Virus record (IMG/VR): IMGVR_UViG_3300036768_000279
Coordinates: 1 to 64,000 of that record
DNA: 64,000 nucleotides
DNA from: a virus
Strand: one strand, 5' to 3'
Shown piece after piece: positions 18,861-63,357 of the stretch; position 1 is the first letter of the stretch; each line of letters opens with the position of its first letter. The notes beneath the pieces were generated by a model. The model did not search any database. It saw only the letters and a list, made by a program, of their open reading frames with translations, and was not told where the DNA came from. The position numbers and the translations under genes are program-made.

Positions 18861-19617
18861 GGTTTTTTCGCAAGCAGAGAAAGAGGCTGTGAAGCTGCTA
18901 TCTAAGCAGGGTTATACCTATGTTGAGATTGCTAAGCAGATGTCGGAACGATATCCTGCTACTTGGAACGCTAAGAATGCCGCACGTTCTGTTGCCCGTA
19001 TCCTCAAGGGCAAAAATGATGACGGTGATGACGAGAAGACGTTAGATGAAATGACACGCGACGAGCGTGCCAATTTTATTGAAGCAAAGCTTCAGGGGAC
19101 GCCACGTTTCAAATTGGCGTTTCGCAACTTCAACGACGAAGAGAAGCAAGTTTTCGTTGACGAATACATTAGCGTCATCAAGTCCACAGAGAGCTTGACA
19201 GAAGTAGAAGAGCAAGCCTTGTTTGCTTCGGTTCTTGAACTTGTACTTGCATTTCAAGCACTTGCTCGGAAGGAACGCGAGGAAAGACTATTTGAACGTT
19301 CACAGAATGGAGAACTTTCTCAGGACGACCCTCAGTATCGTCGTTTCGTGGACGATCGTTATCACAAAGAGTACGACGCACACATGAAGCTCTACCAAAA
19401 GGGTATGGAACAACTCAAAATGAGTCGTTCTCAACGCCTGCAACAGGTACGCTCTCAAAAGCAAACGCTTGTTGATTTGGCACAAGAACTCTCGTCACGT
19501 AATGCACAAGCAGAAGTGGCAGAAGAGATTGAGCGTTTGTCTAAGATGAAGGACGATGAATTGAAACGTTTGATAGACGAAGGACATTTGTTTGGGGTAT
19601 TTGAGGACTATCAATGA
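18853..19617 (+). CDS. HTH + coiled-coil protein, possible terminase small subunit
   Basis: N-terminal HTH (KQGYTYVEIAKQM), long helical body, upstream of TerL. Confidence 0.55.
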   Translation: MPKVFSQAEKEAVKLLSKQGYTYVEIAKQMSERYPATWNAKNAARSVARILKGKNDDGDDEKTLDEMTRDERANFIEAKLQGTPRFKLAFRNFNDEEKQVFVDEYISVIKSTESLTEVEEQALFASVLELVLAFQALARKEREERLFERSQNGELSQDDPQYRRFVDDRYHKEYDAHMKLYQKGMEQLKMSRSQRLQQVRSQKQTLVDLAQELSSRNAQAEVAEEIERLSKMKDDELKRLIDEGHLFGVFEDYQ

Positions 19618-20558
19618 AAATTGCGATGCTTTATGCTTCATGGGAAAACTTCGGAGAGAAGTGGTCTACGCCCATGGGCGTCAAAAACGAACTTGTGGCT
19701 CGCGGACATGAAGTTAAGATCTACAACCTATATCACGCCGATGGAGACTTCTTGCCGAAACGTAAGGAGCGTTCATATTCAAATGATTCTATTAATCGTT
19801 TGATGATGGAAGTGCGTGAGGGCAAGTACAAACCAGACGTTATTTTTCTCATGGACTATGGTCCATGGGATGCAATGCAGTTTGACAAGAAGTATTTTCC
19901 AGGCATTGTGCTTGTTAACGAAGCTGGTGATGAACCACAATCACACAGAATGATGTGGCTCAAGGCTCCAAGGGTCCACGCAATTCTCTCACCAGACTGG
20001 CCTTGTGTTGAACATTATCGTCAGTTTGGTTTCAATGCAGAGTTTTGGACGCATCATGCAGACCATCGTATTTTCTATCCTCGTCCTGAAATCAAAGAAC
20101 AGTTTGATTGCGTGACTACATGTGGTCCTCGCGGTGGCGGTCTCACAGAGAAGATCAAGGACGCACTTGGTGATGCGTTCAATAACGAACGCTACTTCTA
20201 CGACGAAGAACACGCTAAACGTCTCTGTATGGGCAAAATGGTTTTCCAGTGCTCACAGTATAAGGAAATCACACGTCGTATCTTTGAGGGTATGGCTTGT
20301 GGCAAAATGGTAATCACAGATCGTCTTCCGTTAGAGACTAAACTGCATGAGCTTTTTGTCGAAGGCGAAGACATTGTGTATTACGATTCAGCAGAGGATG
20401 CGATCGACAAGATTCGTCGTTATGCATCCGATGACAACGAACGAACAAGAATAGCTCTCAACGGCTATAACAAGGTAATGGCATATCATACCGTTGCAAA
20501 TCGTGTAGATGCCTTTGAAGCAGTGGTGGCGAAAGCCCAAAAGGAAATCCTAGTATGA
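19614..20558 (+). CDS. GT-B glycosyltransferase (CgeB / Glyco_trans_1_2-like)
   Basis: RRIFEGMACGKMVITD, LFVEGEDIVYYDS, RIALNGYNKVMAYHT. Confidence 0.9.
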   Translation: MKIAMLYASWENFGEKWSTPMGVKNELVARGHEVKIYNLYHADGDFLPKRKERSYSNDSINRLMMEVREGKYKPDVIFLMDYGPWDAMQFDKKYFPGIVLVNEAGDEPQSHRMMWLKAPRVHAILSPDWPCVEHYRQFGFNAEFWTHHADHRIFYPRPEIKEQFDCVTTCGPRGGGLTEKIKDALGDAFNNERYFYDEEHAKRLCMGKMVFQCSQYKEITRRIFEGMACGKMVITDRLPLETKLHELFVEGEDIVYYDSAEDAIDKIRRYASDDNERTRIALNGYNKVMAYHTVANRVDAFEAVVAKAQKEILV

Positions 20559-21124
20559 AGAGTTTGATTTTGGTTGCTGGTCTTCTGTTTGGCTCATTCA
20601 ATTTCATTGGCTCTGCCGCACCAGTTGCACAGGCTGTGCCTTCTAGTGCCACAAATCCATATTGTGGCAAGCAGCCTTCCGATTTTTCTGTTCCAGAGGT
20701 CGTATGTCCGTCTGATGGTTATTACATTGTAGATGTCGATTGTGTTGCGGCATGTGACGACGCCTATCGTTCGAAGATGGTCGAGATTTACAATGCGGCA
20801 TGTGTTTCGTATGACAATGCGGACGCGAATTACAAGCTGTGTACACGACTCGCAATTCATGCTTATGACGCATGTTTTGCTGCCGCAACTACATTGCCTG
20901 AGCGTGAAGCTTGTAGAGATACGCTGACGACGGCTATGGAGGATTGTGCTGCTACTCGTGCTGCTACTCGTGCTGCAATTGCGGCAAATGTAGCAAGTCA
21001 ATCTGCCGCTGCTGCGGCAACCTTCCAAGAATGTGCCGCTAAGTGCTGCAAGAAGGTTGGGGAACTGGGCGGCAAGAGCAATGGCGGCAAGATTGGTGCT
21101 CAGGGGTCTCGCAGTGGCAATTGA
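20555..21124 (+). CDS. secreted Cys-rich helical protein
   Basis: Signal peptide; 12 Cys. Confidence 0.7.
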   Translation: MKSLILVAGLLFGSFNFIGSAAPVAQAVPSSATNPYCGKQPSDFSVPEVVCPSDGYYIVDVDCVAACDDAYRSKMVEIYNAACVSYDNADANYKLCTRLAIHAYDACFAAATTLPEREACRDTLTTAMEDCAATRAATRAAIAANVASQSAAAAATFQECAAKCCKKVGELGGKSNGGKIGAQGSRSGN

Positions 21125-21398
21125 ACCGAGAAACGATTATGTGCTCGTGCAGACCGAACCAAAGCAAGAGCGAACTCGCGGAGGCATCCTGCTTCCTGAA
21201 CGTGTTCAGGAAGATCGTATGGAAGCCGTTGTGTTGGCTGTTGGTCCGGGTGGTGTCACTGCCAACGGTATACGAGTACCAATTGATCTTAAGGTCCAAG
21301 ACCGCGTTCTGATTCATCCATTTGCTGGTCAGCAGATTGGTAAAGAAGAAGATCGCATGTATTTGGTGCGACAAGATAGTATTCTTTGCAAGCTATGA
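21114..21398 (+). CDS. groES: co-chaperonin GroES/Cpn10
   Basis: IEPRNDYVLV, TRGGILLPE mobile loop, VLAVGPG, LKVQDRVL; probable GTG start. Confidence 0.92.
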   Translation: MAIEPRNDYVLVQTEPKQERTRGGILLPERVQEDRMEAVVLAVGPGGVTANGIRVPIDLKVQDRVLIHPFAGQQIGKEEDRMYLVRQDSILCKL

Positions 21399-22204
21399 CA
21401 TCGAGTGATCGACATCTGATACCGGGACAACCCAAGTGGGACTATAGTGTGCAACGCTATAAGTCCCACCGGGACGTTTTCCATGAACATGGACTATTCT
21501 CAATCCTGTTCTTGGCATGTGGTCGTCATGATGTTACACGTAGATGCCTACTCGCGACCGTAGATGCTGTCGCTCGCAGTCCTCTTGAAGTAGAGTGGAT
21601 TTTTATTGAAAACGGTCAATGCGAAGAGAACTATCGTTTGTTCTCAGAGATTCCTCTCCAACGCAAGGTCATTGTACGTCAATCAAACTACGGCATCAAT
21701 CAAGGTTTGAATCAGGCGTGGGGCTTATCGCGTGGAGAATACTGCTTGATTCACGAGAACGACTGGGAATGTCGCAAGAATATTGACTTCCTGTCTATCA
21801 CTCGTGATATCATGCAGGAAAAGCCAGAGGTTGGAATCGTACAACTGAGAGCGGTTTACGATCCATGTGAAAATTGGGGTATTGGAAAGCCAGACTACTC
21901 GCCGTGGTCTTGTAGTCAAGAAATGCTTGATCGTGCGAACGTTCGTCTGTGGAATGAACGTACAGCAGCGGGCCATCCATATCAGATTGCCAAATTTCAC
22001 AATGGCTTCAACAACAATCCTGTTGTGATACGTAAAAGTCTGTATTGGGAATGCGGACCATATCCAGAAGCAGAATTAGGCACAGATCCGCGACACGGCG
22101 AGACTGAATATCAGGAACGTGTGGCGAGAACTGGGTGTGCAATTGCACACATTGGTATTGAACTCTTCTATCACTGTGGTCAAACGACCACGAAAGCGAA
22201 CTGA
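21395..22204 (+). CDS. GT-A (family 2-like) glycosyltransferase
   Basis: WIFIENG, NYGINQGLNQAWGLSRGEYCLIHENDW (DxD-like END). Confidence 0.85.
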   Translation: MTSSDRHLIPGQPKWDYSVQRYKSHRDVFHEHGLFSILFLACGRHDVTRRCLLATVDAVARSPLEVEWIFIENGQCEENYRLFSEIPLQRKVIVRQSNYGINQGLNQAWGLSRGEYCLIHENDWECRKNIDFLSITRDIMQEKPEVGIVQLRAVYDPCENWGIGKPDYSPWSCSQEMLDRANVRLWNERTAAGHPYQIAKFHNGFNNNPVVIRKSLYWECGPYPEAELGTDPRHGETEYQERVARTGCAIAHIGIELFYHCGQTTTKAN

Positions 22205-22205: not shown

Positions 22206-22430
22206 ATGAATCTACAAGGATTATTGGTACGTGTTGATGGTGTGCAGGCTACTGTTGAAACGTCCTGGGGGCAGGGCAAGCATCGTGTATTCAAGCTTGA
22301 TGATGGGCGTCAGGTCTTTGACCTTGACAAGCTTATTGAATCTGGCAAGGCAACCGTGGAGTCGATTCCAGAATCAAAACTGGATATCCCTATGCCTCCT
22401 GTAAAAGAACCGAAGAAGTGGTCGCTGTGA
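22206..22430 (+). CDS. hypothetical protein
   Basis: Operon-packed ORF MNLQGLLVRVDG... Confidence 0.65.
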   Translation: MNLQGLLVRVDGVQATVETSWGQGKHRVFKLDDGRQVFDLDKLIESGKATVESIPESKLDIPMPPVKEPKKWSL

Positions 22431-22921
22431 AATCTGAGCTTCCCAAGAAGCCCACACTGATCATTGATACCAGAGAGAAGACTCCCTGGGACTTTGAAGG
22501 TGATGACGAGTTCGAAGCCATTGAGCATACGAAGCTTGATGGCGGCGACTATTCTATTAAGGGTATGGAACATCTCATTGTCATTGAGCGAAAAGCTAAT
22601 GCCGATGAGCTATTCAATAACTTCACACAGAACAAGGATCGCATCTACGCTGAGTTTGAGAGATTGAAAGATCATAGAATGTGTGTCATTGTGATCGAAC
22701 AATCTTGCGAAGACGTATTCAATCCTAACTGCTACTATGTCAACAAGAGGGGCTTGAATAAGCGAGACTTCAAAATGCCTGTTGCTGTTGTAGCTTCTAA
22801 TCTAACAGAGTTGATGGTTAAGCACAACACTCATGTGATTTTTGGTGGCAACAAGGCCAAGGCTATGGCTCGCGGTATTTTGCTTCTGGCTTACAAGCTG
22901 CACAGACAGGGCAAACTGTAA
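22418..22921 (+). CDS. ERCC4/XPF-domain nuclease
   Basis: IIDTREKTPWDF, LDGGDYS, VIERK. Confidence 0.9.
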   Translation: MVAVKSELPKKPTLIIDTREKTPWDFEGDDEFEAIEHTKLDGGDYSIKGMEHLIVIERKANADELFNNFTQNKDRIYAEFERLKDHRMCVIVIEQSCEDVFNPNCYYVNKRGLNKRDFKMPVAVVASNLTELMVKHNTHVIFGGNKAKAMARGILLLAYKLHRQGKL

Positions 22922-24960
22922 TGAGTCTTTCTGCTGGACAAATCAGACGCATGAATAGCTCTGCTTGGAGGACGACCTTCAAGCGAGAGGACATCATGCG
23001 TGTGTTTGATGAATGTGGACCCGTACAATCCATTTATCATATGGCCAATTTCAACTTGGCGTGGTTTGTGCAAAAGGTATTTTGCAATCAGCAAGGCAAG
23101 CCACTCAAGCTTTTGCCATTTCAGCAAGTTATGTTGCAGATGTTGTGGTCCAAGAAGTTCCCAATGATTCTTGCCACTCGTGGTGCTGGCAAGTCATTCA
23201 TTCTAGCCTTGTACGCCTTGTTGAGAGCCATCCTCATTCCTGGCTCAAAAATCGTTATTTGTGGTGCTGGCTTCCGTCAGGCCAAGCTGGTATTCAAGTA
23301 TATCGAACAACTCTATGAAGCTTCGCCGCTTGTTAAGGAAGCTCTAGAGCAATGGGGTGGTCCAAAATATGGTTCTGACATGGCGACGCTTCGCGTTGGT
23401 TTGTCTGTCATTCAGGCTATTCCTATCGGGGACGGTGAAAAGATACGAGGTATTCGTGCGACCTGTCTGATCGCTGACGAGTTCGCTTCTATCCCCGAAG
23501 AGATTTTTGACATCGTTATCGCTCCGTTCACAGCCGTACACGCAAACCCAGAAGAGCGTGCCGCGAACGCCGCCTTCGTTAATCGTTTAATCGGACTTGG
23601 AGCACCACAAAACCTTGTAGAAGCTATTCGCAGCACACAAGGTTTTGGTAACCAGATCGTCATTTCGGGTACACCATCTTACAAGCACAACCATTTCTAT
23701 AAGCGTTATAGTGTGTACAAGATGTTCATTCAGTCGCGTGGTGACGCGAAAAACCTCAAGCGTGCCTTAGAAGAAAAGCATCTTGCGTCTACTGGTCGAA
23801 CTCAAGACGTTACAGAAGACGATTTGAAGAATGCTGAAAAGACGTGGCGTCACTATGCCATCTATCAGCTTCCGTACACAGCACTGCCAGAAAACTTCTT
23901 GGACGAAGACAATATTCGTTCTGACCGTGCCGCGTTCCCAAGACATCGTTTCGCGATGGAATACTTGGCTCAATTCCCTGACGATACGGACGGTTTCATC
24001 AAGAGATCGTGGGTTGAGCGTGCAACGCCGCGTGCCCCTGAAGAGCCGGTGTATGCAGAATTGTATGGCGATCCGCGTGCCATCTATGTCATGGGAATTG
24101 ACCCTGCTCGTTTTAACGACAATCTTGGTGTCGTTGTTCTCAAGCTTACGTCGCGTGGCAAAGAATTGGTATATTGCAACGCATGGGACAAGACAGAGTT
24201 CGGCGTGTCGGCTCAAAAGATTCGCGAGATTGTTAAGCGTTTCAATATTGCATACATCGCTATGGATACAGGCGGTGGTGGCGAGCCAATCCGTGAATGG
24301 CTTTGCAAGAAGGCCGATGGTGTAGCTCCTGAGGAATTCATTTGGGTTGTGCCCGACCAAATGGAGAAGTTTACTGGTGACATGACCGGAATGGGAGCAC
24401 CCGGCAAAAAGATCCTTGAAATGGTTGATTTTACGACCACATGGATTTCTCAAGCGGCCCACGGCGTTGCGTCTGACGTTGAACAATGCAACATTCTCTT
24501 CCCACATCGTGCTGACGAAACACGAGTTTTTGAACAATACGCACGTCACTTTGGTTTGTCTGATCTTTCAGATCGAGAAAAAGAAAAGCTACAACAAGAC
24601 ATTTGGGGTGTAGACGACTGGGACGCCGAACGTGCTTCGAAGACGTATGGCGAGAAATTCATGCCACGCATGGGAGTAATGCAACATATCAATGAGTGTA
24701 TCAATGAGATGTGTGCGATTATGCGTATGGTTAGCCCCAAGGGTACAGAAAGTTTTGAACTACCTAAGCTTTCAGAGCAACCAGAGGGACTTGACATGAG
24801 ACGCCGTGACCGTTGGTCCGCACTCATGCTAGCGAACTATGCAGCCAAGGTTTTCATGGGCACAGGTCACAAACCTAAGGCTGGCGTACCAAGATCCCGT
24901 ACCAGTAGTCGTGGATACACTAGCAGAAGTCGTCGCAGAGGAAGTGTTGGATATTTATGA
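22921..24960 (+). CDS. terL: terminase large subunit
   Basis: LLPFQQ, Walker A TRGAGKS, RGIRA, Walker B LIADEF, SGT coupling motif, nuclease MGIDPA, RRDRWSA. Confidence 0.93.
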   Translation: MSLSAGQIRRMNSSAWRTTFKREDIMRVFDECGPVQSIYHMANFNLAWFVQKVFCNQQGKPLKLLPFQQVMLQMLWSKKFPMILATRGAGKSFILALYALLRAILIPGSKIVICGAGFRQAKLVFKYIEQLYEASPLVKEALEQWGGPKYGSDMATLRVGLSVIQAIPIGDGEKIRGIRATCLIADEFASIPEEIFDIVIAPFTAVHANPEERAANAAFVNRLIGLGAPQNLVEAIRSTQGFGNQIVISGTPSYKHNHFYKRYSVYKMFIQSRGDAKNLKRALEEKHLASTGRTQDVTEDDLKNAEKTWRHYAIYQLPYTALPENFLDEDNIRSDRAAFPRHRFAMEYLAQFPDDTDGFIKRSWVERATPRAPEEPVYAELYGDPRAIYVMGIDPARFNDNLGVVVLKLTSRGKELVYCNAWDKTEFGVSAQKIREIVKRFNIAYIAMDTGGGGEPIREWLCKKADGVAPEEFIWVVPDQMEKFTGDMTGMGAPGKKILEMVDFTTTWISQAAHGVASDVEQCNILFPHRADETRVFEQYARHFGLSDLSDREKEKLQQDIWGVDDWDAERASKTYGEKFMPRMGVMQHINECINEMCAIMRMVSPKGTESFELPKLSEQPEGLDMRRRDRWSALMLANYAAKVFMGTGHKPKAGVPRSRTSSRGYTSRSRRRGSVGYL

Positions 24961-25105: not shown

Positions 25106-27568
25106 ATGGCAAAACGCACCAACTCACGCAGTCAAGTATCGTCTAATAGAGCATCGCCTCAAGCGATGTTAGCCGCTACTCAACGCTCGAATGGCCGCGA
25201 GCCTCAAAAGTCTATGGGCTATTTTTATGGCAACATGGGCGACAGTATTGAGCGTCGCTACAGCGGTCTAGATGGTAGTCCGAATGCTGGCTTCGGTGGC
25301 GGTAGTGACTGGGGCCAAGGTACCCTCGGTGCCGGTACATCCTGGAATGCACAGGGTTACGGCAACTACTTTGGCACTGGTTTGCTCAATGGCTATGGTC
25401 GCATGTTCGGTGGTGCTGCCGCTGGTGGAGCGGCTGGTGGATTTACCTACCTAAAGCGTTTCTCTTCAAACGCCGCATTCAATCACCAGATCATTGCCCA
25501 ATGCCATATGGCATATCTGGGATACGGTATCGTTCGCAACATCGTAGATCTGTATGCAGACTTTGCCACCGAGGGCATCGATATCGAGCACCCGGACGCA
25601 TCGGTACGTAATTTCTACAGAACTTGGGCACGTAAGATTGGTCTTGAGGAACGTTGTCATAACATGTTCCTCAATCTCTTCGTTTCAGGCCAAACGTTCG
25701 TGCATCGTCGCTGGGCAACGCTTGATGATAATGAAAAGCGTGCTATGAAGCGTTCTGAGGCTTCTGAGAACATTGGCGACACTCTTGTGGTACGTGGCAA
25801 GTCCAAGGACTTGACGATTGAAGGCAGCGAAGAGGGGTTCATTGATTGGTTCCTTTCTAAGAAGGGGACGGAATACATCAATGATCTAACCAAAGCCGAG
25901 AAGGCTATTGGTAAAGCCCCGCCTTCTGCTACAGAGGAAAAGCTACCTAAGAACGAAGGCAAGCAAATTCCTTGGGGCTACACATTCCTCAATCCATTGC
26001 AGATGGAAATGCGTGGCCGCAAGATTAGTGGCGACTCTTACTGGGTTATGGCCCTTGATAAGCGAGACGCTCTTGATGTTGCTCGCGGACTTGGAATGAG
26101 AACGACACAGGACTTGGGGACAACTCAAGTCAACATTCCGCGTGAGTTCTTGTCACGTATAAATGCTTATCAAGGCCCCGGTGCTGGATACGCGGCTGAG
26201 ATCAAGCTTTCAAAGGAAGAGTTGAGCGTTGTTCAAGCTCCAGGCAAATGGGATTGGTTTGACTGGGCCGTGCCGTTTGTCTATCCATGTTTGCGTGCAT
26301 TGTATTTCAAGGACTGTTTGCGTACGATGGAAATTCGTGCATGTCAGTCTATCGTCAATGCCGTCTTTTTGTACAAGCTTGGCAATATGGAAAAGGGTAT
26401 GCCAGCCGAAGAAGAACACTTCGAGCGTTTGGCAGACATGCTCCAGATGCCTGGATCGGTGATGAACATTCTCTGGAACGAGAACATCACTGCGGAAGTA
26501 ATTCAGCCTAAGGTCGAGGGCATTTTTGATATCGACAAGCATAAGTCTGCTGATCATGACATCATGACGGCACTTGGCGTGCCGGAAGTTTTGATTGGCG
26601 GCGGTGGCGGCAACTTCTCAAATTCGTTCATTGCGGTTTCGACCGTACTTGAACGTCTTGAGTCGTATCGTAATCGCGTCAAAGACTGGATCATGGGAGA
26701 AATGAAGATCATCGCCGATGCGATGGGCTTCCAAAAACTCCCAACTATTCGTTTTGGCAGAACAAGTCTTCAAGATGAGAGGGCTTACCAAGCCTTCGTC
26801 ACTGGTCTATATGACCGTAACATTTTGTCTGCCGATACAGTTCTTCGTGAACTAGACACGGACGTTGCTACTGAAGTCGCGAAGATGCAAGAAGAGAATG
26901 AATTGCGTGGCGAGGGCGTCCTTGAAATGCGTGGGCCGTTCGTCAGACCTGACAATAAGGATGGCGTACCTCAACCTCCGTCACCGCCAGCCGCTCCTGC
27001 TGGACCGGGCGGAGCCAAGAAACCAAAGACTCCAAAGACGCCAAATGGTCGTCCGATTGGCACACCAACTGGCCCAACTGGCAAGCAGGGCAATCCTCGT
27101 AAGCCGAAGGGGCAGGGTGTTGCAAAGCTTTCGAAACTATTGGCACTACACGACGAGCTTTCGGAGCGTGGACGTAACGTATTGGCACGCCTTGAAGACT
27201 TCATTGGCGAACGTGTGCTTCGTGCTAAAGCCAAGGACAATCCTGGTCTCAAGCACTTGAAGCAACTCAAATATGAAGAACGTGAGCGTTTGGAGCAGAT
27301 GATTTATAACGTATTCAGTCACATGCCTGCACCAGACAGCGACTCTTCTTTGAGTGATGATTTTATTATCAACATGCTTCGTTCTGATGCATCTGAAACA
27401 GTTAAAGCTGATGTCTTGAACATCTATACGGACAAAGTTGCACAGTACAGCAAATCGTATGGCAAAGCTCCTACCCGGGAAATGCGTCGCCAATTTATGG
27501 TGTCTGCATGGACGCAAAAAGCCATTAAGGAACACATCGCTCAAAAACCTGATTTACTCAGATCATAG
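25106..27568 (+). CDS. portal protein
   Basis: Position after TerL; GIVRNIVDLYADFATEGI, ALGVPEVLIGG...NFSN; Pro-rich C-terminal extension. Confidence 0.85.
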   Translation: MAKRTNSRSQVSSNRASPQAMLAATQRSNGREPQKSMGYFYGNMGDSIERRYSGLDGSPNAGFGGGSDWGQGTLGAGTSWNAQGYGNYFGTGLLNGYGRMFGGAAAGGAAGGFTYLKRFSSNAAFNHQIIAQCHMAYLGYGIVRNIVDLYADFATEGIDIEHPDASVRNFYRTWARKIGLEERCHNMFLNLFVSGQTFVHRRWATLDDNEKRAMKRSEASENIGDTLVVRGKSKDLTIEGSEEGFIDWFLSKKGTEYINDLTKAEKAIGKAPPSATEEKLPKNEGKQIPWGYTFLNPLQMEMRGRKISGDSYWVMALDKRDALDVARGLGMRTTQDLGTTQVNIPREFLSRINAYQGPGAGYAAEIKLSKEELSVVQAPGKWDWFDWAVPFVYPCLRALYFKDCLRTMEIRACQSIVNAVFLYKLGNMEKGMPAEEEHFERLADMLQMPGSVMNILWNENITAEVIQPKVEGIFDIDKHKSADHDIMTALGVPEVLIGGGGGNFSNSFIAVSTVLERLESYRNRVKDWIMGEMKIIADAMGFQKLPTIRFGRTSLQDERAYQAFVTGLYDRNILSADTVLRELDTDVATEVAKMQEENELRGEGVLEMRGPFVRPDNKDGVPQPPSPPAAPAGPGGAKKPKTPKTPNGRPIGTPTGPTGKQGNPRKPKGQGVAKLSKLLALHDELSERGRNVLARLEDFIGERVLRAKAKDNPGLKHLKQLKYEERERLEQMIYNVFSHMPAPDSDSSLSDDFIINMLRSDASETVKADVLNIYTDKVAQYSKSYGKAPTREMRRQFMVSAWTQKAIKEHIAQKPDLLRS

Positions 27569-51765: not shown

Positions 51766-51794
51766 CAAGGAGCCCGCTTCTGGCGGGCTCCTTG
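51766..51794 (+). terminator. terminator hairpin
   Basis: CAAGGAGCCCGC-TTCTG-GCGGGCTCCTTG. Confidence 0.7.
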
Positions 51795-51796
51795 CG

Positions 51797-51806
51797 TTAG
51801 TGTATT
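51797..51806 (+). promoter_or_regulatory. putative late promoter
   Basis: TTAGTGTA-TT. Confidence 0.72.
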
Positions 51807-51857
51807 ACTATTTCGAGGCGTAGCGTTTCGCTTAGCCTTGGGTGTAAGGGGTAGTAC

Positions 51858-55300: not shown

Positions 55301-57132
55301 CGAGATCATTTACGTTCTTGCCTGGACCGCTGAAAAACTCAGACTTGTTGGTGCAGTGCAGTGGCTTGACTTACGCAAATGGTAGTGCTGGTACTACAAA
55401 TTTGATTCCTCCATTTGCTGTGTCTGGATCGTATTTCGACAGTCCACAAAACGGATTCTCGGTTGGTTTCTTTATGGCAAAGAGAGCCAATGCTGTTACC
55501 AACAATGTGGACCCTATGCTTGTGTATGGTCTTGTTAATGCTACAAATTCCACAAACACTGCAATTGATTTCAATCGTGGTTGGGCAATTGTTGGTGACG
55601 ACAACGGCAACATTAAAATGGTGATGTCAGTGGGTGGTGGTGGTTACTACGATAATCCCACCGTAGCGGTGCCTATTCAATCTGGTCAGATCGTTTGTGG
55701 TACTTACGATAATGACAGTCCATACGAAGATCAAACACGCTTCAACAACTATCTATTTGGCAATCCAAAACCACCGAGGTTGGATTTCTGGAACCATTAT
55801 TGTTGGACGTGGGATCCTACACAAAAAGAACTGAAGTGTTTTGTCAATGGTCAAGAGGTTGATCGCAAGGGAACAAAATTTGCGGTTGATCCATTGAACG
55901 GTGGTCCTGCATCAGGCTTGAATCCAATTGTGCCAGTCAATCCAGCGGCTCGCATGATCACGTTCTTGTCGCACCAAAATGCCTCTCCATGGGACTTTAG
56001 TGCATCCGCCTTGCATGATGAACATTCCATCATTACTGACGTTTTCTATTTCTCTCGTCAACTCACTGAAGCTGAAGTGCGTTACATTTCTCAAAATGGG
56101 ATCGATGGTGCAAACGGCACAGCAACAAGCGGAACGATCGGTGGATACATTCTAGGATCTATGCAGGCGTCTGGTTCTATTGGCGGTTATCAAAGAGGCT
56201 TGGACACCACTTCAGGCATCTTTGGTGGCTTCAATTTCTCTGCTGAGGCGGCGTCCGGTATTATTGGAGGATACATTTCCGGCGTCACGTTCTTTACGGC
56301 TGCACCATCTGGATCGTTCGGCGGATATATCCGTGGATACGATTTTGGATCAGGTCTCTTTGGCGGATTTATCAAGGGTGCTGGAACACTAAGTGGTATC
56401 CTTGGTGGATTCATGCTTGGAGGTCTTCGTGGAAGCATGCAATTCGATGGCGGATTCACAGTACAAGCTTTTGCCGCTAAGGACTTCGACTCGCAAGTAG
56501 TCATTCGCCAGAATACGACATCTGACTTTGATGCCAAACTAGTCATTTTCCAAGCCGAAACCGGACCACTTGTAGATATCATTGTTCCGTCAAGAACCGT
56601 AAGTGGAGTAACCGCCCCATTCAACCAATACTTTGTTGGTGCTGCATCAGGCACACAAGGCAAGTCTATCGTACAAACACGCTGGACATTTGGAGACTTG
56701 ACGCCATCTGTTTCTGTTTCGCCAAGTGGTGATGGATTCTATCCAGTTCAGCATTACTATGCTGGTAGCGGATTCTTCATTGCCAAGTTTGAAGCAATCG
56801 ATTCGAATGGCATCCATGGATCGGCTACACGCATTATTAATGCCGCATCTGGCATTGATCCTGTGATTGTCAGCCTATCTGGAGTGCCACGTTCTGGCAA
56901 TGCTGCACTGACAGTGGATTTCGTGACGACAGTTGATATTTTGCCACCTGGGGTAGCCATCAATACAAGTCTGTTGAACTTTGATGATGGACAGTCTACG
57001 ATTACGCTCAGCCCGACTCACGTCTATACAGAACCAGGAACTTACAAACCAATCTGGATTGTTCGCGATTCTCGTGGCGTGATTTGGTGTGATAGCCTCG
57101 AAGCCGGTAACGACTTCTTGAGAGGGGTCTAG
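52315..57132 (+). CDS. large tail fibre/adhesin: four LamG/ConA-like domains, SG-repeat stalk, two PKD-like domains
   Basis: Four L(I/V)GYW-type domain starts and R.L...EI ends; C-terminal WTFGD and FDDG..HVYTEPGTY. Confidence 0.8.
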   Translation: MANFLNDGSLIGFWPLNEPSGSPIFLNYSPARSRQPSGISFDFHVAQAESEAAAQVKSVWPGTATVFNPESGVNYNGFMVQGYWKLGTDSSPYSRYLVLGNGCSQVREQTLSQNVAQSGITVGIWVYPNSNGYLNFYTDANTASYNGETEGTRCHMLFGQKQFAQLGGWQIGISGAMDQGAQFNSAASNRQLTAYASIERNAGSPTVLRTPIESGRYTHLTFTFRYLDGTTDQVVLYKDGRVAASGTSNTGAGGASATCLANSNLTGRAVTIGGGDNANTGTNNYGGTCGWNHLVSGAYIFRRVLHEGEILDLHNGQTLQPLEGNRKHPIKVELTDSQLLAYYPFRSVGWPDVSKNHRPLIGQKDEGPSTTIIPIPGPFKAGAMLNNGTNQSNHVVATSGLIYDMINARSWTIGMFAGPTNGLGRPSNMLFSMGSVSATTTVGAPAAITTSTFGMALTEFGAPNRIRFSAYPLGDITASVFNIDTATSGYYRGVSHHYAVAYDDSTKGIAVYVDGHLQGSGTLAHSLSDQLLRLAGSGYPLMFTNGVSDTISDAASHGTLAAGGQDLFVGPIIVMGRALLPEEIMYVAQSGIDTTPTWRTPHDPRLVGYWPCTDFKLDDVIAEDRARVWEPFPGNLSRGDTTTKWAAWYVSPRFNQFGTRTTPAALDSYGVLGITSGIFGVHGLSPGTAVVADASPARSSIANLALRYKPVNEQNNLACQNPIGDFVLGYEVTPSGNIPATPFGLTADNTKFEFNSTLHVYGNLAGSTTDGEVRSFLTTVDAAQGSGVSIVFASRTGTFSAANYTALISGVLPYGIPSKVLLHAKFDSPYNVNADAAGTTPLTLSLWINGNLASKRRMTAATARLWTDNTADSSGDDFLLEFGGEAGNDTLTTQISRDGGLGEIYMREIFLMRGTFDKDEIQALATSGIQNPSIAGYTPTLPKTQVTVFDSNLEGYWRFNGFAGGGSGTTDLSLKSHHLTPLAEQKNRAGAANQATRSFTFLPGPLKNSDLLVQCSGLTYANGSAGTTNLIPPFAVSGSYFDSPQNGFSVGFFMAKRANAVTNNVDPMLVYGLVNATNSTNTAIDFNRGWAIVGDDNGNIKMVMSVGGGGYYDNPTVAVPIQSGQIVCGTYDNDSPYEDQTRFNNYLFGNPKPPRLDFWNHYCWTWDPTQKELKCFVNGQEVDRKGTKFAVDPLNGGPASGLNPIVPVNPAARMITFLSHQNASPWDFSASALHDEHSIITDVFYFSRQLTEAEVRYISQNGIDGANGTATSGTIGGYILGSMQASGSIGGYQRGLDTTSGIFGGFNFSAEAASGIIGGYISGVTFFTAAPSGSFGGYIRGYDFGSGLFGGFIKGAGTLSGILGGFMLGGLRGSMQFDGGFTVQAFAAKDFDSQVVIRQNTTSDFDAKLVIFQAETGPLVDIIVPSRTVSGVTAPFNQYFVGAASGTQGKSIVQTRWTFGDLTPSVSVSPSGDGFYPVQHYYAGSGFFIAKFEAIDSNGIHGSATRIINAASGIDPVIVSLSGVPRSGNAALTVDFVTTVDILPPGVAINTSLLNFDDGQSTITLSPTHVYTEPGTYKPIWIVRDSRGVIWCDSLEAGNDFLRGV
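56128..56421 (+). repeat. seven ~14-aa S-G-x-(I/F/L)-G-G-(Y/F) repeats
   Basis: SGTIGGY, SGSIGGY, SGIFGGF, SGIIGGY, SGSFGGY, SGLFGGF, SGILGGF. Confidence 0.85.
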
Positions 57133-57134
57133 GC

Positions 57135-60100
57135 ATGAACATTCTTGTATCTAATGGCATTGTTGTTAGCGGCGTAGGTGTGCCGCTCAATGGCATTGCA
57201 TTTCCATCTGGTCAGTTTGGTTCTGGCGTGCCGGGATCTCAACTAGCAGCTTTCTTGTCTTCTGCTAATGCTACGTTTGGTTTCAATCTAACTCCACACA
57301 ACCTACAAACTGAATGGATTCCCGTTGGTCCTCCAGAGACCTTCCATGGTGCTAGCGGACAGTTGCCAGAAATTGGCAAACCAATGGAGATTTTCATTGG
57401 CGACTTCTACTTCCGTGGCAGTGTAGTTCACTCAGATTACACAACAAGTATTGGTGGAACGATTGTAAATGTGACATTAGAAGATGATCGTCGCTACTTG
57501 CGTCGCGTCAAGGTTCATACAGAAGATCTTGGTCAGAGCGTACCAAGCGGCGTTGTATCTGTTGCTAGAGCATTCCGAATTCTGAATGGTCTTGAGGACG
57601 TTGACGGCAATCCATCAGAGCCTCTTGTAAAGGAATATGATCGCATCCTTCAATTCGGTGGTACGTACGATCAAATCTTGGCGGCTATCGACCTTGCTTA
57701 CAACGAGGGCAATTGTTCGATTCCGGTTTCTATTCTGCCCACGGTAGAACAGATTGAGAAGAACATTGGCGGAACTGTAACGGCCATTCGTTTTCAGTTC
57801 AATCTAGACACACTGGATGACGTGCTTTCGCGTGTATTGCTAGATACTGGTTATGACTGGTACTGGAATATGGATGCACAGCGTGTCGCACTTATCAACA
57901 AAAAGAAACAGTTCGACATTAGTGAAGCCGATATCCTGAATCTGGTGTCGCAGTTTGGTAGTGCGTCTGGACTAAACGAAACGAAACAGCTTGGCTTTGG
58001 TCAAGACGTTGTTCCAGATCCAACACGCTTCCGCGTTCTTGGCGGACACCAAGAAGGCTTCATCAACTCTCATTTGTTGAGTCCAATTGATGGCATGGAT
58101 ACGTCCGCATTGGACGGCAATGTTGTATTCACTAAGGCATGGGACAAACTGAGTGTTGGATTCTATGACGCTGATGGCTTCTTCCGTACATACCGACCAA
58201 CAGAAAAGGAATTGCAGCTTGCGTTGGCGGGCATTGAGCAATGGACATACTACAAGATCTATCAGACGGCTAGCGGCACAGCGAACCCTCCAGGATACGG
58301 ATACCCACCTGACAACGGCTCGATCGCCGCTCAAGACCCATCATTCCAAAGTCGTCTTGATCCTAACATGCCGCTTGCTGGTATTGCTACTGGAGCAGCC
58401 GAGTCTGGTTTGAGGGTGATCAGCAATCGTCGAGACCAAGAACAAAACTGGGTAATCGCTTTCTACAATCGAGTACGCGATCATGCATCACGTCACTATG
58501 GACGCTCGTATGTGGCTGAGGGCTTGTTGTACAATCAAGCTTCCGGTCTTTTCCAGCTTGTTGATGCTGCATGGGCAAATATCGAAAATCAGGTACAGGG
58601 ATATTCTCTATCTGCTTCTGGTACAGTTACAACAAGCGGCGTGTTCGTAGAAGACTATGAAATCAATCGTGCTCTAGGTCCGATAAGTCCATTCGTGACA
58701 GATGATTTTAGAGTTCGTGCATACTGTGTTCTGCCTCGCGATACGGTGTATGGTCCTCTTGGCGACGACAATCCAGCAAGCTTTGCAAACTGGACGGAAG
58801 ACGCTCCGCCATTCAATCCAAGCGGAGACGGCAGACACTACATTCCGATCACTTTGCAGGACGTTGGTGATCGTGTCATTGACCCGCATAGTGAAGCAGA
58901 CCTTTACGGATTTGAGTCATATCCAAAAGGCACATTGCTTTGTCAACTACCAATCAACGCCGGACCATCTGGCGGGATTGTGAATGATGGTATCATCTTC
59001 AATTTGGCTACGATGTTGACAACTGTCAACAAGCTGACCGGCTCTGGTTTGCTAGATATCATCAATCCATCGCAAGTCTTGAATGTCTATGACGCACTCT
59101 CTGGAGTGGCTATTCCGGTACAGTCGCGTCTGCGTTACGGCCAAACATATCCAAGTCAATGGGTATTGGGCGACCTCCATTATGAGCGTCACGAAGACGT
59201 ACAGCTAGACGACCAGTTTGTACCGTGGGCTTTCTCGCCAGAGGGAAATCAAACATCTCTCCAGATCATGACGGATCGTGCTATTCGTCGTGTACAGGGC
59301 AAAATTGTGCCGAAGTCGTCTTCTCGCTATGCGGATTTCCAGCAAGTGGGATTGCCACTATTGTCCTTTGATGCATTTGCTGAGCAGAACATTGGACCAT
59401 CGGGTCTGTACGGCGAGATTTCGCACGGTGTTAGCGAAATGAACATCAGCTTTGGCGTCGATGGTTTCATTACACGCTACAAGATTCAGTCTTACTATCC
59501 CAAGTTCGGTCGCGAGGCCCCACTGGGTGAACGTGTGCGTGCCCAGCTAAACGGCATCCTCAATCCAATCGATTTCGCCGATCTGCAACTTCTCGACCCA
59601 AATCCGGGCAAGCCATCGAACCCGGCACTACCGGGCGATACGTTCGCACCACCGATCTTTTTCGACGCAGAGCAGAATGCTGTGCGTGTAACGATTACTG
59701 AAGTCAACAATGTTTTCACACTTTCAAGCACTCCCGGTACCGCTATCGATGAACGCTATCGTGGTATCGACCAGCACGCTTACACGAAGCCGCCTATAGC
59801 TCTGAGTTCATCTAACATTGATTTCCGTGAGGGGGCAATTTGTATCGATGGATTCTTGAACATAGGCGATAAGGCAGTCTATCACACCGACAACTTCCAG
59901 TTGCCAAATGGCAACACTATTCTAAGGTATTTCACACAAGGGCGTCCATTTGCCAACGGAACCATTGTTCAGATCGAACGTGTCAATCCAAGCAATACGT
60001 CTAACTATGACGTAACGATTGTTGGTGGCACGGCATCTAGAGCTATCTTCAATCTACCAGTTTTGAATGGCACAGTGACAGTTGGAGACAGAACTACATT

Positions 60101-60449
60101 GGCAGCACAAGGCAATGCCAAGATCATTCCTGGTGAAATGGATGGTACGGTTTACCTCAATGGAACTACTTCAAGTGCCGCTGGTGTTGTGCCTGTAGAA
60201 ATCACGTCTATGTCAGATCAGGGACTCGTAACAGCAAGAGCTACATGTCGTCCATTGAACACGGATGGTCAGGTCGTTAGTTCTGGAACGATCTATTCTA
60301 ACGTTATTCCGATTCCATTCCCACAGTTTGCTTCATCTGGCGACAGAGGATTCTTGGCAAGTGCCGTTGTTCCAAGTGGCTCTTTCGGTGCAACAGCTAC
60401 AGCCAACTTCATCGAAATTGTCAAGCCAGCCTTCTTTAGATATCAGTAA
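57135..60449 (+). CDS. tail tip / baseplate hub-like protein
   Basis: 1104 aa, beta-rich, in tail module. Confidence 0.65.
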   Translation: MNILVSNGIVVSGVGVPLNGIAFPSGQFGSGVPGSQLAAFLSSANATFGFNLTPHNLQTEWIPVGPPETFHGASGQLPEIGKPMEIFIGDFYFRGSVVHSDYTTSIGGTIVNVTLEDDRRYLRRVKVHTEDLGQSVPSGVVSVARAFRILNGLEDVDGNPSEPLVKEYDRILQFGGTYDQILAAIDLAYNEGNCSIPVSILPTVEQIEKNIGGTVTAIRFQFNLDTLDDVLSRVLLDTGYDWYWNMDAQRVALINKKKQFDISEADILNLVSQFGSASGLNETKQLGFGQDVVPDPTRFRVLGGHQEGFINSHLLSPIDGMDTSALDGNVVFTKAWDKLSVGFYDADGFFRTYRPTEKELQLALAGIEQWTYYKIYQTASGTANPPGYGYPPDNGSIAAQDPSFQSRLDPNMPLAGIATGAAESGLRVISNRRDQEQNWVIAFYNRVRDHASRHYGRSYVAEGLLYNQASGLFQLVDAAWANIENQVQGYSLSASGTVTTSGVFVEDYEINRALGPISPFVTDDFRVRAYCVLPRDTVYGPLGDDNPASFANWTEDAPPFNPSGDGRHYIPITLQDVGDRVIDPHSEADLYGFESYPKGTLLCQLPINAGPSGGIVNDGIIFNLATMLTTVNKLTGSGLLDIINPSQVLNVYDALSGVAIPVQSRLRYGQTYPSQWVLGDLHYERHEDVQLDDQFVPWAFSPEGNQTSLQIMTDRAIRRVQGKIVPKSSSRYADFQQVGLPLLSFDAFAEQNIGPSGLYGEISHGVSEMNISFGVDGFITRYKIQSYYPKFGREAPLGERVRAQLNGILNPIDFADLQLLDPNPGKPSNPALPGDTFAPPIFFDAEQNAVRVTITEVNNVFTLSSTPGTAIDERYRGIDQHAYTKPPIALSSSNIDFREGAICIDGFLNIGDKAVYHTDNFQLPNGNTILRYFTQGRPFANGTIVQIERVNPSNTSNYDVTIVGGTASRAIFNLPVLNGTVTVGDRTTLAAQGNAKIIPGEMDGTVYLNGTTSSAAGVVPVEITSMSDQGLVTARATCRPLNTDGQVVSSGTIYSNVIPIPFPQFASSGDRGFLASAVVPSGSFGATATANFIEIVKPAFFRYQ

Positions 60450-62605
60450 TGACACTCGCATCAGGACAGCTACCGTACAACTACGATCACGGAAAAGGAC
60501 GTTTCCGTGTTCCAAATCCGTATTCATCAATACATCCAATTGGACCGTCTGGAGTTCTATTGGAACAGGCATTGTTCGTTCTAACCGCAGAACGTCGCAA
60601 GCTATTGAAGTTTAGCTTTGGCGAAGGCAACAACTATCTGTATGATGCTTTCGTCTACGTTAACCCTGTTATTGCTCCATCAGGGCCGTATGAGCCCAAA
60701 GCAAATGGATCAACGATTGGCAATGCGGTGTATCCTGGTGCTGCGTTTATCATCGATCACATTCAAGACTTGCGATATGCAATGAACCAGCACTTTTCAT
60801 TCATTTCGCAAGATACTAATCTAGGAAGCGATGACTATAGAGCTGCATGGCTACAAGCTTTGTATCCAGAAAGCCCTAGTGGTTTTTTGTTTGCAACAGA
60901 TCCCGATACTGGCAATGATGTGACTGGTCATTGGGCACATCGTGCTCCATCAGACATTGGGGCATTTGTAGACTATACATTACCTGAAGTGCTTGGTGCA
61001 TCAGGAATTTTGTACGACATTGATTTTGGAGAATTAATGTGGAATCCCCCACCGCACTTGTCGAGTTTTGGTAATGACACGATGCATTCTCGAAAAGTCG
61101 ATGGTACGAACGATACGTTTTCTGTACAGCAATTCCCCATTTTTCCTGCTTTTCAAAAGACCAACGGAGACTTGGTGACATTGACTGGTCGCGAACCAGA
61201 TGTTATTCCACAAGCTTCTGATTATCAGATTGATCACATTGCTTCTGGTGCCATCAGATTCGATGGCTACGCCCTGTTTAGCAACACCAAGTTATTTGTG
61301 GGTCGTAATGGCAACATCTTCAACACCACAACACCAGATTTTACAGTTGACGCCGAAGGTCATCGTGTTGTTCTTGATGGCGGTAACGTTGCCAGCTCGC
61401 GTATATTTGCTTCGCCGTCTGCACAAACATCCGGCGTCTATCGTATAGCGGCCAAAAATCGTTTCGCTGATTTTCCTACAACTACTATTGAATCTGGCAA
61501 GATGAGCTTTTGGCCAACGATTACATCGTATTGGCCAAATTCCGACGCTGTTGTACAGCCGTATGGCCAAACACAAGTTGTGGGCTATCTTGGCTATCAT
61601 GTATTTGATGATTGTTTGTGGCAGACGGACGTTTCGTTCAATCAATCAGTGACCCCAGATACGGGGTTCTGCTCTGGTTTGGCGATTATGTCTCCGTATA
61701 CAGGACACCCATTATGGGTGCGTTACGCAGATCAGACAGCCGTTGATTCTATTCCACTTGCGGGCTTTCCTGCGAAAAAAAAGAATTGGTCAACTGGCAA
61801 GGGATTGGAAAGGGTTACTACAAACGACATTCGTCGTCTACACCCCAACATACAACACGATGCTACGCTTGTATCTGGTCAATTTATTATTATGCAATAT
61901 AATGATATGCTTGACCTTACAACGTCTTTTGCTACAACATCAGACAGTGTTGAAACTGGTCTAGTAGACAACGTTCCGCTTGGTGTTGGTTCGTCTACTA
62001 CTATTGAAGTTAATGATTTGTGGCGTGATGATGTAACTGGCGAATACTGGATTGCAAATAGCAATTTTGCTGGCTTTGATGTTTGGAAATTCGACTCGTC
62101 TTTTAAGTACATCAATAAATACATATTCAATCCAAATAGCGGTATTAACAACGCTCGTGGTTTCTTCATGAATGGCAATCACTATCTATTCCATGGCGAG
62201 TTTGGTGCAACAGGCACAACTCACATTCGTGGTAGTGGCATCTATCCTGTACGATTTGGTGCAGACGGTACCGAGCCCTATGACAATACTAGTAACCAGC
62301 CGCAAGTTGGTGTACTGTGGATTTGGCCCAACGAGGGAAAATTCATTAATGGTGCTCCATTTCTTGGCACAAGACGTTTTGCCGAAATTCTTGATATGAT
62401 ATACGTGCCGTCTGCAACGCACGTTGTGCCTGGGGTATATGCCTTAGTAAGATGGGCAAGAGCAGAAGGTAGCTTCAATGACTTGTATTTGTTGCGTCTT
62501 GAGGAAACTACTGACGCCTGGGAAATTCGTGCCGTCACGGAATTGGACACATCGTTTTTAAGCCCAAATCAAGGTAGGCGAGAACTCTTATACATGACCT
62601 ATTAG
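60449..62605 (+). CDS. tail-associated protein, possible receptor-binding protein
   Basis: 718 aa, aromatic beta-rich C-half. Confidence 0.6.
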   Translation: MTLASGQLPYNYDHGKGRFRVPNPYSSIHPIGPSGVLLEQALFVLTAERRKLLKFSFGEGNNYLYDAFVYVNPVIAPSGPYEPKANGSTIGNAVYPGAAFIIDHIQDLRYAMNQHFSFISQDTNLGSDDYRAAWLQALYPESPSGFLFATDPDTGNDVTGHWAHRAPSDIGAFVDYTLPEVLGASGILYDIDFGELMWNPPPHLSSFGNDTMHSRKVDGTNDTFSVQQFPIFPAFQKTNGDLVTLTGREPDVIPQASDYQIDHIASGAIRFDGYALFSNTKLFVGRNGNIFNTTTPDFTVDAEGHRVVLDGGNVASSRIFASPSAQTSGVYRIAAKNRFADFPTTTIESGKMSFWPTITSYWPNSDAVVQPYGQTQVVGYLGYHVFDDCLWQTDVSFNQSVTPDTGFCSGLAIMSPYTGHPLWVRYADQTAVDSIPLAGFPAKKKNWSTGKGLERVTTNDIRRLHPNIQHDATLVSGQFIIMQYNDMLDLTTSFATTSDSVETGLVDNVPLGVGSSTTIEVNDLWRDDVTGEYWIANSNFAGFDVWKFDSSFKYINKYIFNPNSGINNARGFFMNGNHYLFHGEFGATGTTHIRGSGIYPVRFGADGTEPYDNTSNQPQVGVLWIWPNEGKFINGAPFLGTRRFAEILDMIYVPSATHVVPGVYALVRWARAEGSFNDLYLLRLEETTDAWEIRAVTELDTSFLSPNQGRRELLYMTY

Positions 62606-62611
62606 TGTATT
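62602..62611 (+). promoter_or_regulatory. putative late promoter
   Basis: TTAGTGTA-TT overlapping the TAG stop. Confidence 0.7.
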
Positions 62612-62697
62612 GTTACGTGCGTTGGTATTTTTACCATAGCAGTGCAGGGTCAAACGTTCTCTCGTGAGATAGTTGCCCATCACGTAGAGGAAAACAC

Positions 62698-63357
62698 ATG
62701 GTAAGTGGAATTCGTTTTTTTGCATGTTCTGGAGCTATGGGTGGAACTCCGGCCACTCGTGCAACTCCAAACCTTGAGATCTTCAACCTTGAGCCGGGTG
62801 CTACCAACAATCCTAACCGCATGGGATTTTTCGGTTCTGCTGGTGCTCCAAACAGTGCGGTCATTGTTGGGCAGTATCAAGATCGTACTCACCGCTGTGA
62901 CGAGACTGGCGTTGACTTTGGGGCGATGATCAATGTCAAATTCACTGGTGCAACTACTGCCAGTGTCTCTGGCGTTCCATTCACGGCCGGATTGCAGAAT
63001 ATTTCACGTAGCTCCGGCACCCTGCTTTGTCGTTTCACGGAACCGAATGGTACGGCTGTAATCACTCAGAACGCTACGTTTAGTGCAATCAATCTCACGG
63101 CTGGGTCTGGTGCCCCGAACGTGTCAGATCTCGTGAGTACGGGTATTACCATCAAGGCTGCACAACTTCCCGATACACAAGGTTTTGCCGGTAGTACATC
63201 TTGGCAGAACATCGATAGCAGCGGTTCTGCTCTAGCCCTCAACGCTCAGAACGGTACGGCGAGCGTACACGACTTCCATTTGATCATCAGCGGTACTCCG
63301 ACTGCCGCCGGACGCAAGGTGAACTTCGCATACTACATGCAACTTGAGTATCTGTAA
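62698..63357 (+). CDS. virion structural protein
   Basis: GAGGA SD; G/S/T-rich beta protein; own promoter motif and terminator. Confidence 0.7.
   Translation: MVSGIRFFACSGAMGGTPATRATPNLEIFNLEPGATNNPNRMGFFGSAGAPNSAVIVGQYQDRTHRCDETGVDFGAMINVKFTGATTASVSGVPFTAGLQNISRSSGTLLCRFTEPNGTAVITQNATFSAINLTAGSGAPNVSDLVSTGITIKAAQLPDTQGFAGSTSWQNIDSSGSALALNAQNGTASVHDFHLIISGTPTAAGRKVNFAYYMQLEYL

Follow-up and report, generated by a model that had tools for sequence, protein, structure and literature searches.

The tail region of a large uncultured phage raises the question of why its proteins so often carry serine directly followed by glycine, and whether the glycosyltransferases (GTs) encoded by the same phage act on these serines. 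The window analysed here comprises the first 64 kb (64,000 nucleotides) of IMG/VR record IMGVR_UViG_3300036768_000279, which is a complete genome of 147,927 bp with direct terminal repeats. A sequence-only reading of this window had proposed a virion O-glycosylation system made up of two GTs and a Ser-Gly (SG) sequon enriched only in surface-exposed structural proteins. The proposal held in part. An SG excess is present, it extends to a longer motif, the serine is conserved, and the tails of control phages lack the excess. On the other side, the modification is a step we infer, and the major capsid protein (MCP) is devoid of SG. Our leading reading, which we hold tentatively and at somewhat less than an even chance, is that [A/P/G]-S-G-[V/I/L] may mark tail, baseplate and fibre proteins as acceptors and that phage GTs would O-glycosylate the serine of this motif.

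Ser-Gly in tail, baseplate and fibre proteins

The SG counts given by the sequence-only reading were reproduced exactly, and the excess survived correction for amino-acid composition with 2000 composition-preserving shuffles per protein as the null. All features of the window described here lie on the plus strand, which carries genes from about 18 kb onward. Seven proteins were significant individually (z 3.5 to 6.0). The 1605-aa fibre (52315-57132) contains 39 SG with 16.8 expected (z 6.0), next to 18 GS and 5 TG; the 1104-aa tail/baseplate protein (57135-60449) has 19 with 7.9 expected (z 4.4), the 718-aa variable distal protein (60449-62605) 12 with 4.6 expected (z 3.8) and the 505-aa baseplate hub (47746-49263) 12 with 3.8 expected (z 4.6). 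The smaller ones are the 186-aa tail protein (49265-49825; 7 observed, 1.7 expected, z 4.4), the 219-aa beta-sandwich protein (62698-63357; 7 observed, 2.3 expected, z 3.5) and the 341-aa neck/tail protein (36290-37315; 6 observed, 1.6 expected, z 3.7). Taken singly the excess was weak in the 468-aa tail-tube-like protein (37771-39177; 7 observed, 3.5 expected, z 2.1), the 213-aa protein (50855-51496; 6 observed, 2.6 expected, z 2.3) and a 290-aa protein (4 SG, z 1.2). For nine tail proteins pooled, 115 SG were observed and 44.9 expected, corresponding to an observed/expected ratio (O/E) of 2.56 and a z of 10.5, while the runner-up dipeptide reached z 3.3. In the same nine proteins O/E was 1.22 for GS, 1.29 for NG, 1.08 for DG, 0.93 for AG and 0.64 for TG.

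The other 30 proteins of the window held 30 SG with 42.4 expected. Among the SG-poor proteins are the large terminase TerL (22921-24960; phrog_2, E 2.5e-35) with 1 SG in 679 residues (2.7 expected), the portal (25106-27568; phrog_2739, E 2.7e-9) with 3 in 820 (4.9 expected), the MCP (32171-33208; phrog_2522, E 1.7e-5) with 0 in 345 (1.2 expected) and the tape measure (42419-47743; phrog_4211, E 4.7e-37), which is depleted with 6 in 1774 (10.8 expected). In the rest of the genome SG was at about 1.0, apart from five fibre-like paralogs at 102.9-108.6 kb. Because SG is spread over 20 codon pairs, the signal lies at the amino-acid level, and a cause at the DNA level was rejected. The earlier description of SG as restricted to surface-exposed proteins proved inaccurate: the MCP, which had been taken for an internal protein, is exposed on the virion and has none, whereas the hub with its tube-like domains has 12.

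Shared ancestry and repeats might have generated the excess as a by-product, with duplicated domains or paralogs inflating SG. The seven tandem SG-led repeats described for the fibre are real (SG-x-x-G-G-[Y/F], 14 aa each, residues 1272-1365); they accompany LamG-like jelly-roll and PKD domains (PF13385 and PF18911, with a further lead from the Atlas), and the N-terminus of the fibre resembles repeated LamG-like domains. The 213- and 219-aa proteins look like paralogs, the former being aligned with the beta-sandwich family of the latter as a candidate relative, and the five proteins at 103-109 kb share SG-bearing N-termini. Yet nearly everywhere SG is located in unique local sequence, the fibre still has more than 30 SG without its repeat block, and the hub, the tube-like, 341-, 186-, 1104- and 718-aa proteins are each enriched alone, with no mutual similarity noted, although no pairwise comparison was made. 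Since the per-protein shuffles were significant in seven unrelated proteins, repeats and paralogs were mostly rejected as the cause; we regard this largely refuted explanation as very improbable. The five proteins at 103-109 kb lie beyond the window at genome positions 102938-108628, are co-oriented and SG-rich and comprise 253, 392, 256, 228 and 743 aa. Several of them share an N-terminal S-G-(Q/S)-A-H-L-G ... N-I-H ... S-G-V. None had a Pfam match, and they are probably a second fibre set.

The real unit is the tetrapeptide [A/P/G]-S-G-[V/I/L], which is directional and confined to one protein class. V, I or L follows SG in 51% of the tail sites compared with 16% of the non-tail SG sites (Fisher p 8.5e-11), so the aliphatic context noted in the sequence-only reading holds and is specific to tail sites. 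In the same proteins V/I/L follows AG, TG, NG, DG, GG and PG at only 12-19%. The preceding residue is A, P or G in 47% of tail sites versus 21% elsewhere (Fisher p 2.2e-6), and the aliphatic +1 residue is followed by L, Y or F at +2. Across 16 tail and fibre proteins S-G-[VIL] was found 86 times with 15.4 expected (5.6-fold), while T-, A-, N- and D-G-[VIL] showed no enrichment. TerL, portal, MCP, tape measure and three others together contained 3 S-G-[VIL] with 4.6 expected (0.65). In total there are about 120 dispersed, internal motif sites across 11 proteins of the window and about 170 candidate sites per genome.

The pattern was followed in syntenic IMG/VR relatives with a hub identity of 58-90%, two of which were examined over 60 kb each. 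In both of these all SG-rich proteins were SG-rich as well (O/E 1.3-4.3), and TerL, portal, MCP and tape measure were SG-poor. The pattern was the same in 17 loci, and SG in the tape measure had an O/E of 0.2-0.9 in 17 relatives. Between orthologs 77% of SG dipeptides were retained, compared with 33% of all dipeptides, 62% of PG and 51% of DG. In orthologs at 45-70% identity the serine of SG was conserved in 80% versus 43% for other serines and the glycine in 86% versus 68% for other glycines; in the fibre, with an overall identity of 43%, the serine of SG was conserved in 87% versus 29% for other serines. Ten of the 12 SG of the hub are invariant among five orthologs, and orthologs of the 341-aa protein carry 5-6 SG. 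The 718-aa protein is only 23-33% identical to its orthologs, yet these carry 13-16 SG. The 219-aa family (30 homologs with 5-10 SG each) is conserved across the wider clade. Where close orthologs deviate at SG columns, the substitutes are D, T, G and N before G. These alignments indicate that the serine of the motif is under strong purifying selection.

Glycosyltransferases and gene order

The two GTs are located directly upstream of TerL on the same strand, and both are free of SG. GT1 (19614-20558) is a CgeB-like GT-B enzyme (PF13524, E 1.7e-24, 86.9 bits at a cut-off of 25) and the second is a family 2 GT-A enzyme (21386-22204; PF00535, E 4.5e-5, a marginal 23.9 bits at a cut-off of 23.3). 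Their placement between a sigma-like gene and TerL stood with respect to the GTs themselves. The sigma call at the head of the late block is weak (18240-18860; Sigma70_r2, E 0.0049, its 17.1 bits falling short of the cut-off at 24), and a Cpn10/GroES co-chaperonin gene (21033-21398; PF00166, E 1e-21) lies between the two GTs. Orthologs of GT1 at 50-82% identity occur in the five relatives examined, among them G001, G002, G003 and G005. The adjacency of GT1 to TerL was shown in G002 and G003, which also have GT-A orthologs at 42-53%.

The sugar machinery of the phage is far larger than the two GTs named by the sequence-only reading, and nothing ties those two specifically to the motif. At 74.8-94.2 kb the genome encodes GTs with four PF00534, four PF00535 and two PF13524 matches, a sigma-70-like protein, 3-4 methyltransferases, an enzyme of the GMP-reductase/IMPDH family, an Fcl-like epimerase and Gmd. 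The genome total is about 12 GTs, 3-4 methyltransferases and Gmd/Fcl, with GDP-fucose as the only sugar-nucleotide pathway seen.

Two other targets had been considered for the GTs, DNA and the surface glycans of the host. Modification of DNA is disfavoured because PF00303, the thymidylate-synthase-like dNMP hydroxymethylase of the T4-like hydroxymethyl-pyrimidine route, was absent from the complete 147,927-bp genome while control genomes matched. A crude hydropathy scan of the genome found no open reading frame with more than two transmembrane-like segments, and modification of host surface glycans is disfavoured because no polytopic membrane protein turned up, such as the flippase, polymerase or oligosaccharyltransferase of lipid-linked pathways (Wzx/Wzy, PglL-type). 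Export via host machinery may occur.

Of the 30 clade genomes, 28 have PF13524 and the remaining two have PF00534. A relative without GTs was sought, but every one of the 30 genomes has them; the co-occurrence of SG and GTs is confounded by common descent. The clade genome with the fewest GTs (G015, 72% GC) has neither PF13524 nor PF00535, and of its three PF00534 matches a single one exceeds the cut-off. SG in the tail proteins of G015 has an O/E of about 0-2.0, in a genome where calling of reading frames is unreliable and the big fibre was not found. Homologs of GT1 at 35-42% identity reside in glycan islands of unrelated large phages, and no tail genes were found within 10 kb on either side of GT1 homologs. 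On contig L045, which is viral and unrelated, the GT1 homolog has a Cpn60 (GroEL-type) gene close by.

From 5' to 3' the late block of the window runs from the weak sigma-like gene over GT1, Cpn10, GT-A and an ERCC4-like nuclease to TerL, portal, MCP and neck genes. The 468-aa tube-like protein, chaperone-like genes, the 1774-aa tape measure, the hub and small proteins follow, and the fibre and then the 1104-, 718- and 219-aa proteins form the distal end. This order, together with the missing sheath match, suggests a resemblance to T5-type siphoviruses. TerL is at best 25-33% identical to that of cultured phages. Most structural proteins of the window had no match in Pfam or PHROGs, and for the SG-rich proteins Pfam, PHROGs and PDB sequence searches gave almost none. 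The 468-aa protein has Atlas look-alikes bearing Phage_tube_2 or Phi812_tail_tube (scores 0.94-0.96), which we treat as a lead only. The ERCC4-domain gene (22418-22921), the end of which meets the start of TerL, occupies the position expected of the small terminase and is kept in relatives. A 169-aa gene at 35781-36290 is missing from the corresponding position in G002, and its sole homolog in G003 stands beside the GT gene, which suggests a mobile or shuffled small gene. A homing endonuclease (LAGLIDADG plus AP2/HNH-type; 49856-50704; 0 SG) is inserted among the tail genes and is absent at the corresponding place in G002 and G003.

Control phages, structure models and competing readings

If SG were a generic feature of tail proteins, other phages should show the excess too. 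Pooled tail proteins had an SG O/E of 1.05 in T4, 1.58 in lambda, 1.24 in T5 and 0.96 in P2. The value was about 1.3-1.6 in Microcystis phage MaeS, which among cultured phages from water is the closest relative by TerL, and S-G-[VIL] had an O/E of 0.9-1.6 in all five control tails. With SG values of 0.96-1.6 throughout, a generic tail-protein property was rejected. The control phages hold tube, hub and beta-sandwich folds of the kinds seen here; thus SG is not a requirement of these folds. As outgroups we used three unrelated phages, each with a glycan island that includes a GT1 homolog. Collagen-like (G-T/S-S)n proteins occur in one of them and acidic low-complexity repeats in another. G045, an unrelated large phage (35% GC) whose glycan island likewise includes a GT1 homolog, has on its minus strand the genes of three giant proteins of 1050-2865 aa (41572-44724, 50053-58413 and 69369-77966), in which long collagen-like (G-T/S-S)n triplet runs are accompanied by 20-24% Ser and about 20% Gly.

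A profile search yielded 476 hub homologs. All of those with E<1e-20 had an SG O/E of 1.9-3.3, while more distant ones ranged from 0 to 4.0 with a mean of about 1.7 and SG often at other positions; some carry only 0-2 SG. The distant homologs stem from 38 viral loci, many of them on contigs of 90-180 kb, and single-protein scans of viral contigs for the context of the SG-rich and SG-poor ones gave nothing. These loci represent the wider clade, the phages of which are uncultured, have 125-185 kb and are probably from freshwater. Of their 169 tail-module proteins 32 were SG-enriched at p<0.01, whereas most control dipeptides reached this level in 0-1 proteins and GG in 4. The O/E values of SG show a second hump at 2.5-3. 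Distant phages show the enrichment in large fibre-like proteins and in a family of about 210 aa, the hub and the next two proteins being poor. Their SG-rich fibres have no BLAST similarity to the fibre of this phage and match its flanks and its TG depletion. In the wider-clade loci L121-L158 NG and DG of the tail modules are depleted (O/E 0.76 and 0.89; 21-24 proteins individually). One possible cause is that sequences liable to deamidation or isomerisation are avoided; this phage's own tail set does not show the depletion.

The position of SG in the fold was mapped on AF2 models of the hub and the 219-aa protein. In the hub model (pLDDT 86) a tube-like unit is repeated, and Foldseek matched it weakly to tail tubes, the Mu baseplate and SPP1 Dit; neither model had a Foldseek match at E <= 0.001. 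Of the 12 SG of the hub, loops hold seven and the ends of hairpin strands two; another is located where a loop passes into a strand, and the long helix 298-328 contains the last two. At the two conserved helix sites distant homologs have S-K or S-A. The 219-aa protein is modelled as a beta-sandwich (pTM 0.81) with SG mostly at loop/strand boundaries; a two-residue hairpin holds one of its SG, and another is within a strand. Being distributed over loops, hairpins, strand ends and a helix, SG does not mark one structural element.

Several observations weigh against glycosylation of the motif. The most exposed protein of the virion, the MCP, is without any SG, and two of the 12 SG of the hub are inside a long helix, as is one SG of the 219-aa protein inside a strand. 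At the SG columns of the lineage, distant hub homologs hold SG most often, then TG, DG and NG, the classical turn formers. Among dipeptides unshared between orthologs SG has an O/E of 1.22, equal to GS; at this depth the excess thus consists of old, fixed sites and not of continual re-creation. A dispersed motif was not found in the three outgroup phages, although these too have GT1 homologs in glycan islands, and the co-occurrence with GTs is inseparable from common descent as every clade genome examined has some GT. Finally, the sites in glycosylated mycobacteriophages are C-terminal as far as the account in PMC12619734 goes, whereas here the C-termini are not Ser-rich (MCP ...LIGEF, tube-like protein ...DIGLF) and the MCP lacks SG.

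Such observations would fit a lineage-specific structural idiom. In this view S-G-[V/I/L] would be a glycine turn with a serine cap at the start of a beta-strand, fixed early in the tail proteins of the clade, maintained by purifying selection and never modified, while the GTs act elsewhere. Mapped SG lie mostly at loop/strand boundaries or in tight hairpins, an aliphatic +1 residue with L/Y/F at +2 suits the start of a strand, and the column substitutes are T, D and N before G in distant and D, T, G and N in close homologs. The excess is in conserved and not in new sites, and a buried-looking hub has SG while the exposed MCP has none. However, T4, T5, lambda, P2 and MaeS have the same folds without the excess, and some hub homologs manage with 0-2 SG. 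Other x-G dipeptides of these proteins are not trailed by V/I/L, and NG and DG, the better turn formers, are unenriched. Moreover, 16 proteins of different folds would have adopted one idiom without a common driver, and two conserved SG are inside a helix, at positions that hold S-K or S-A in distant homologs. On balance we doubt a purely structural origin, although its chance is considerable.

The motif could also be read by another clade-specific factor, be it for phosphorylation, acylation or the like, or as a docking site of an assembly chaperone or protease, with the GTs serving a different target such as remodelling of the host surface. Directionality, restriction to one protein class and absence from the tails of other phages would apply equally to such a reader, and a Cpn10 gene lies between the two GTs. 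GT1 homologs reside in glycan islands of other viral contigs, one of them beside Cpn60, and cyanophage glycan clusters have been proposed to alter the host surface. Against this, no kinase, acyltransferase or dedicated protease was identified, a weak point given that the genome is not fully annotated; phage-encoded membrane machinery for export of surface glycans was not seen in the hydropathy scan, and the GTs are the one conspicuous enzyme class, found in 30 of 30 clade genomes examined. We consider another reader improbable.

A directional, class-restricted motif that is absent from the same folds elsewhere and common to dissimilar fibres of the clade argues for a clade-specific reader over a requirement of the fold. 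Glycosylation is our favoured function of that reader; the conspicuous enzymes of the clade are GTs without a DNA or export route. In the glycosylation reading the serine would be O-glycosylated by phage GTs in the host cytoplasm, before or during tail assembly. The initiating GT would recognise the motif, and candidates are the two GTs next to TerL, which would be expressed with the structural genes. Glycine may open access to the serine hydroxyl, and the aliphatic residue may anchor the site where a loop passes into a strand. A fucose-containing, methylated glycan would then be extended and capped by the GTs and methyltransferases that the 75-94 kb operon encodes. Resistance to proteases or grazers, adhesion and masking are candidate purposes of such a coat. 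Extended to the clade, the proposal is that all its members may coat their tails and fibres with a self-made fucose/methyl-sugar glycan at [A/P/G]-S-G-[V/I/L], read by phage-encoded cytoplasmic GTs; we advance it as a possibility that falls short of being probable.

Precedents and implications

Virions of the mycobacteriophages Che8, Corndog and Myrna are O-glycosylated by phage GTs (Freeman et al. 2023, as cited in PMC12619734), and according to that account the glycans are at the C-termini of capsid and tail-tube subunits (PMC12619734). As far as this account describes it, the system is alike in that phage GTs are encoded in or beside the structural genes, that structural proteins including the tail tube are proposed acceptors and that modification is cytoplasmic without export machinery. 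By the same measure, the GT set here is about six times that of the mycobacteriophages and is joined by GDP-fucose synthesis and methyltransferases, and the sites are dispersed and internal. In the genome of Mycobacterium phage Che8 the capsid protein (5051-5872) ends in ...NKTGS and the major tail protein (7613-8422) in ...YSDGS.

TibC is a cytoplasmic GT-B enzyme that heptosylates Ser, but not Thr, of AIDA-I in N-S-G-G and T-S-A-A contexts (PMC4358343). The mapped AIDA-I sites N-S313-G-G-A-V and T-S322-A-A-V have a small residue at +1 (PMC4358343). Cytoplasmic hyperglycosylation that is specific to Ser and occurs at S-G and S-A thus has a precedent in TibC (PMC4358343), which supports the glycosylation reading. 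In the systems of the bacterial autotransporter heptosyltransferases TibC and AAH, a cytoplasmic GT-B enzyme hyperglycosylates many serines of a beta-rich adhesin, TibA or AIDA-I (PMC4358343), and in this they resemble what is proposed here. The motif statistics, which are sequence counts, stand beside the Ser preference of TibC in that SG is enriched and TG depleted. A phmmer search with GT1 against all PDB chains gave no match to TibC, a GT-B enzyme with an iron-finger and a beta-hairpin thumb, the only GT1-family match being a weak one to 5i45 (E 0.063). The systems differ in the donor, ADP-heptose there and a GDP-fucose pathway here, and the acceptors in the present case would be phage tail proteins of several folds.

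In eukaryotic proteoglycans the xylosylation sequon is Ser-Gly with acidic flanks. The likeness drawn by the sequence-only reading extends to the Ser-Gly core of the acceptor and ends there: acidic residues are depleted within 4 residues of SG (fraction 0.047 versus a background of 0.091), and the flanks are A/P/G and V/I/L. A related transferase family of the proteoglycan type was not seen. Enzymes of the HMW1C type glycosylate adhesins in the cytoplasm at a short linear sequon with dozens of sites, and chlorovirus and mimivirus encode their own glycan pathways for virion proteins, including fucose and methylated sugars. Both differ from the present case as they are N-linked at NX(S/T) or atypical N-sequons and belong to bacteria or eukaryotic viruses, not to the tails of tailed phages.

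To our knowledge only a few mycobacteriophages are known to glycosylate their virions with enzymes of their own, on the C-terminal tails of capsid and tail-tube proteins. If the motif is purely structural, it constitutes an unusually clean, clade-wide sequence idiom that could mislead motif-based predictions of modification. If it is indeed a glycosylation signal, no sequon for protein glycosylation would have been defined in tailed phages before it, and glycosylation of virions would become predictable from sequence. It would also explain the large sugar-gene islands without obvious target in many big environmental phages and would bear on host recognition, on survival of virions in water and on the engineering of phage surfaces.

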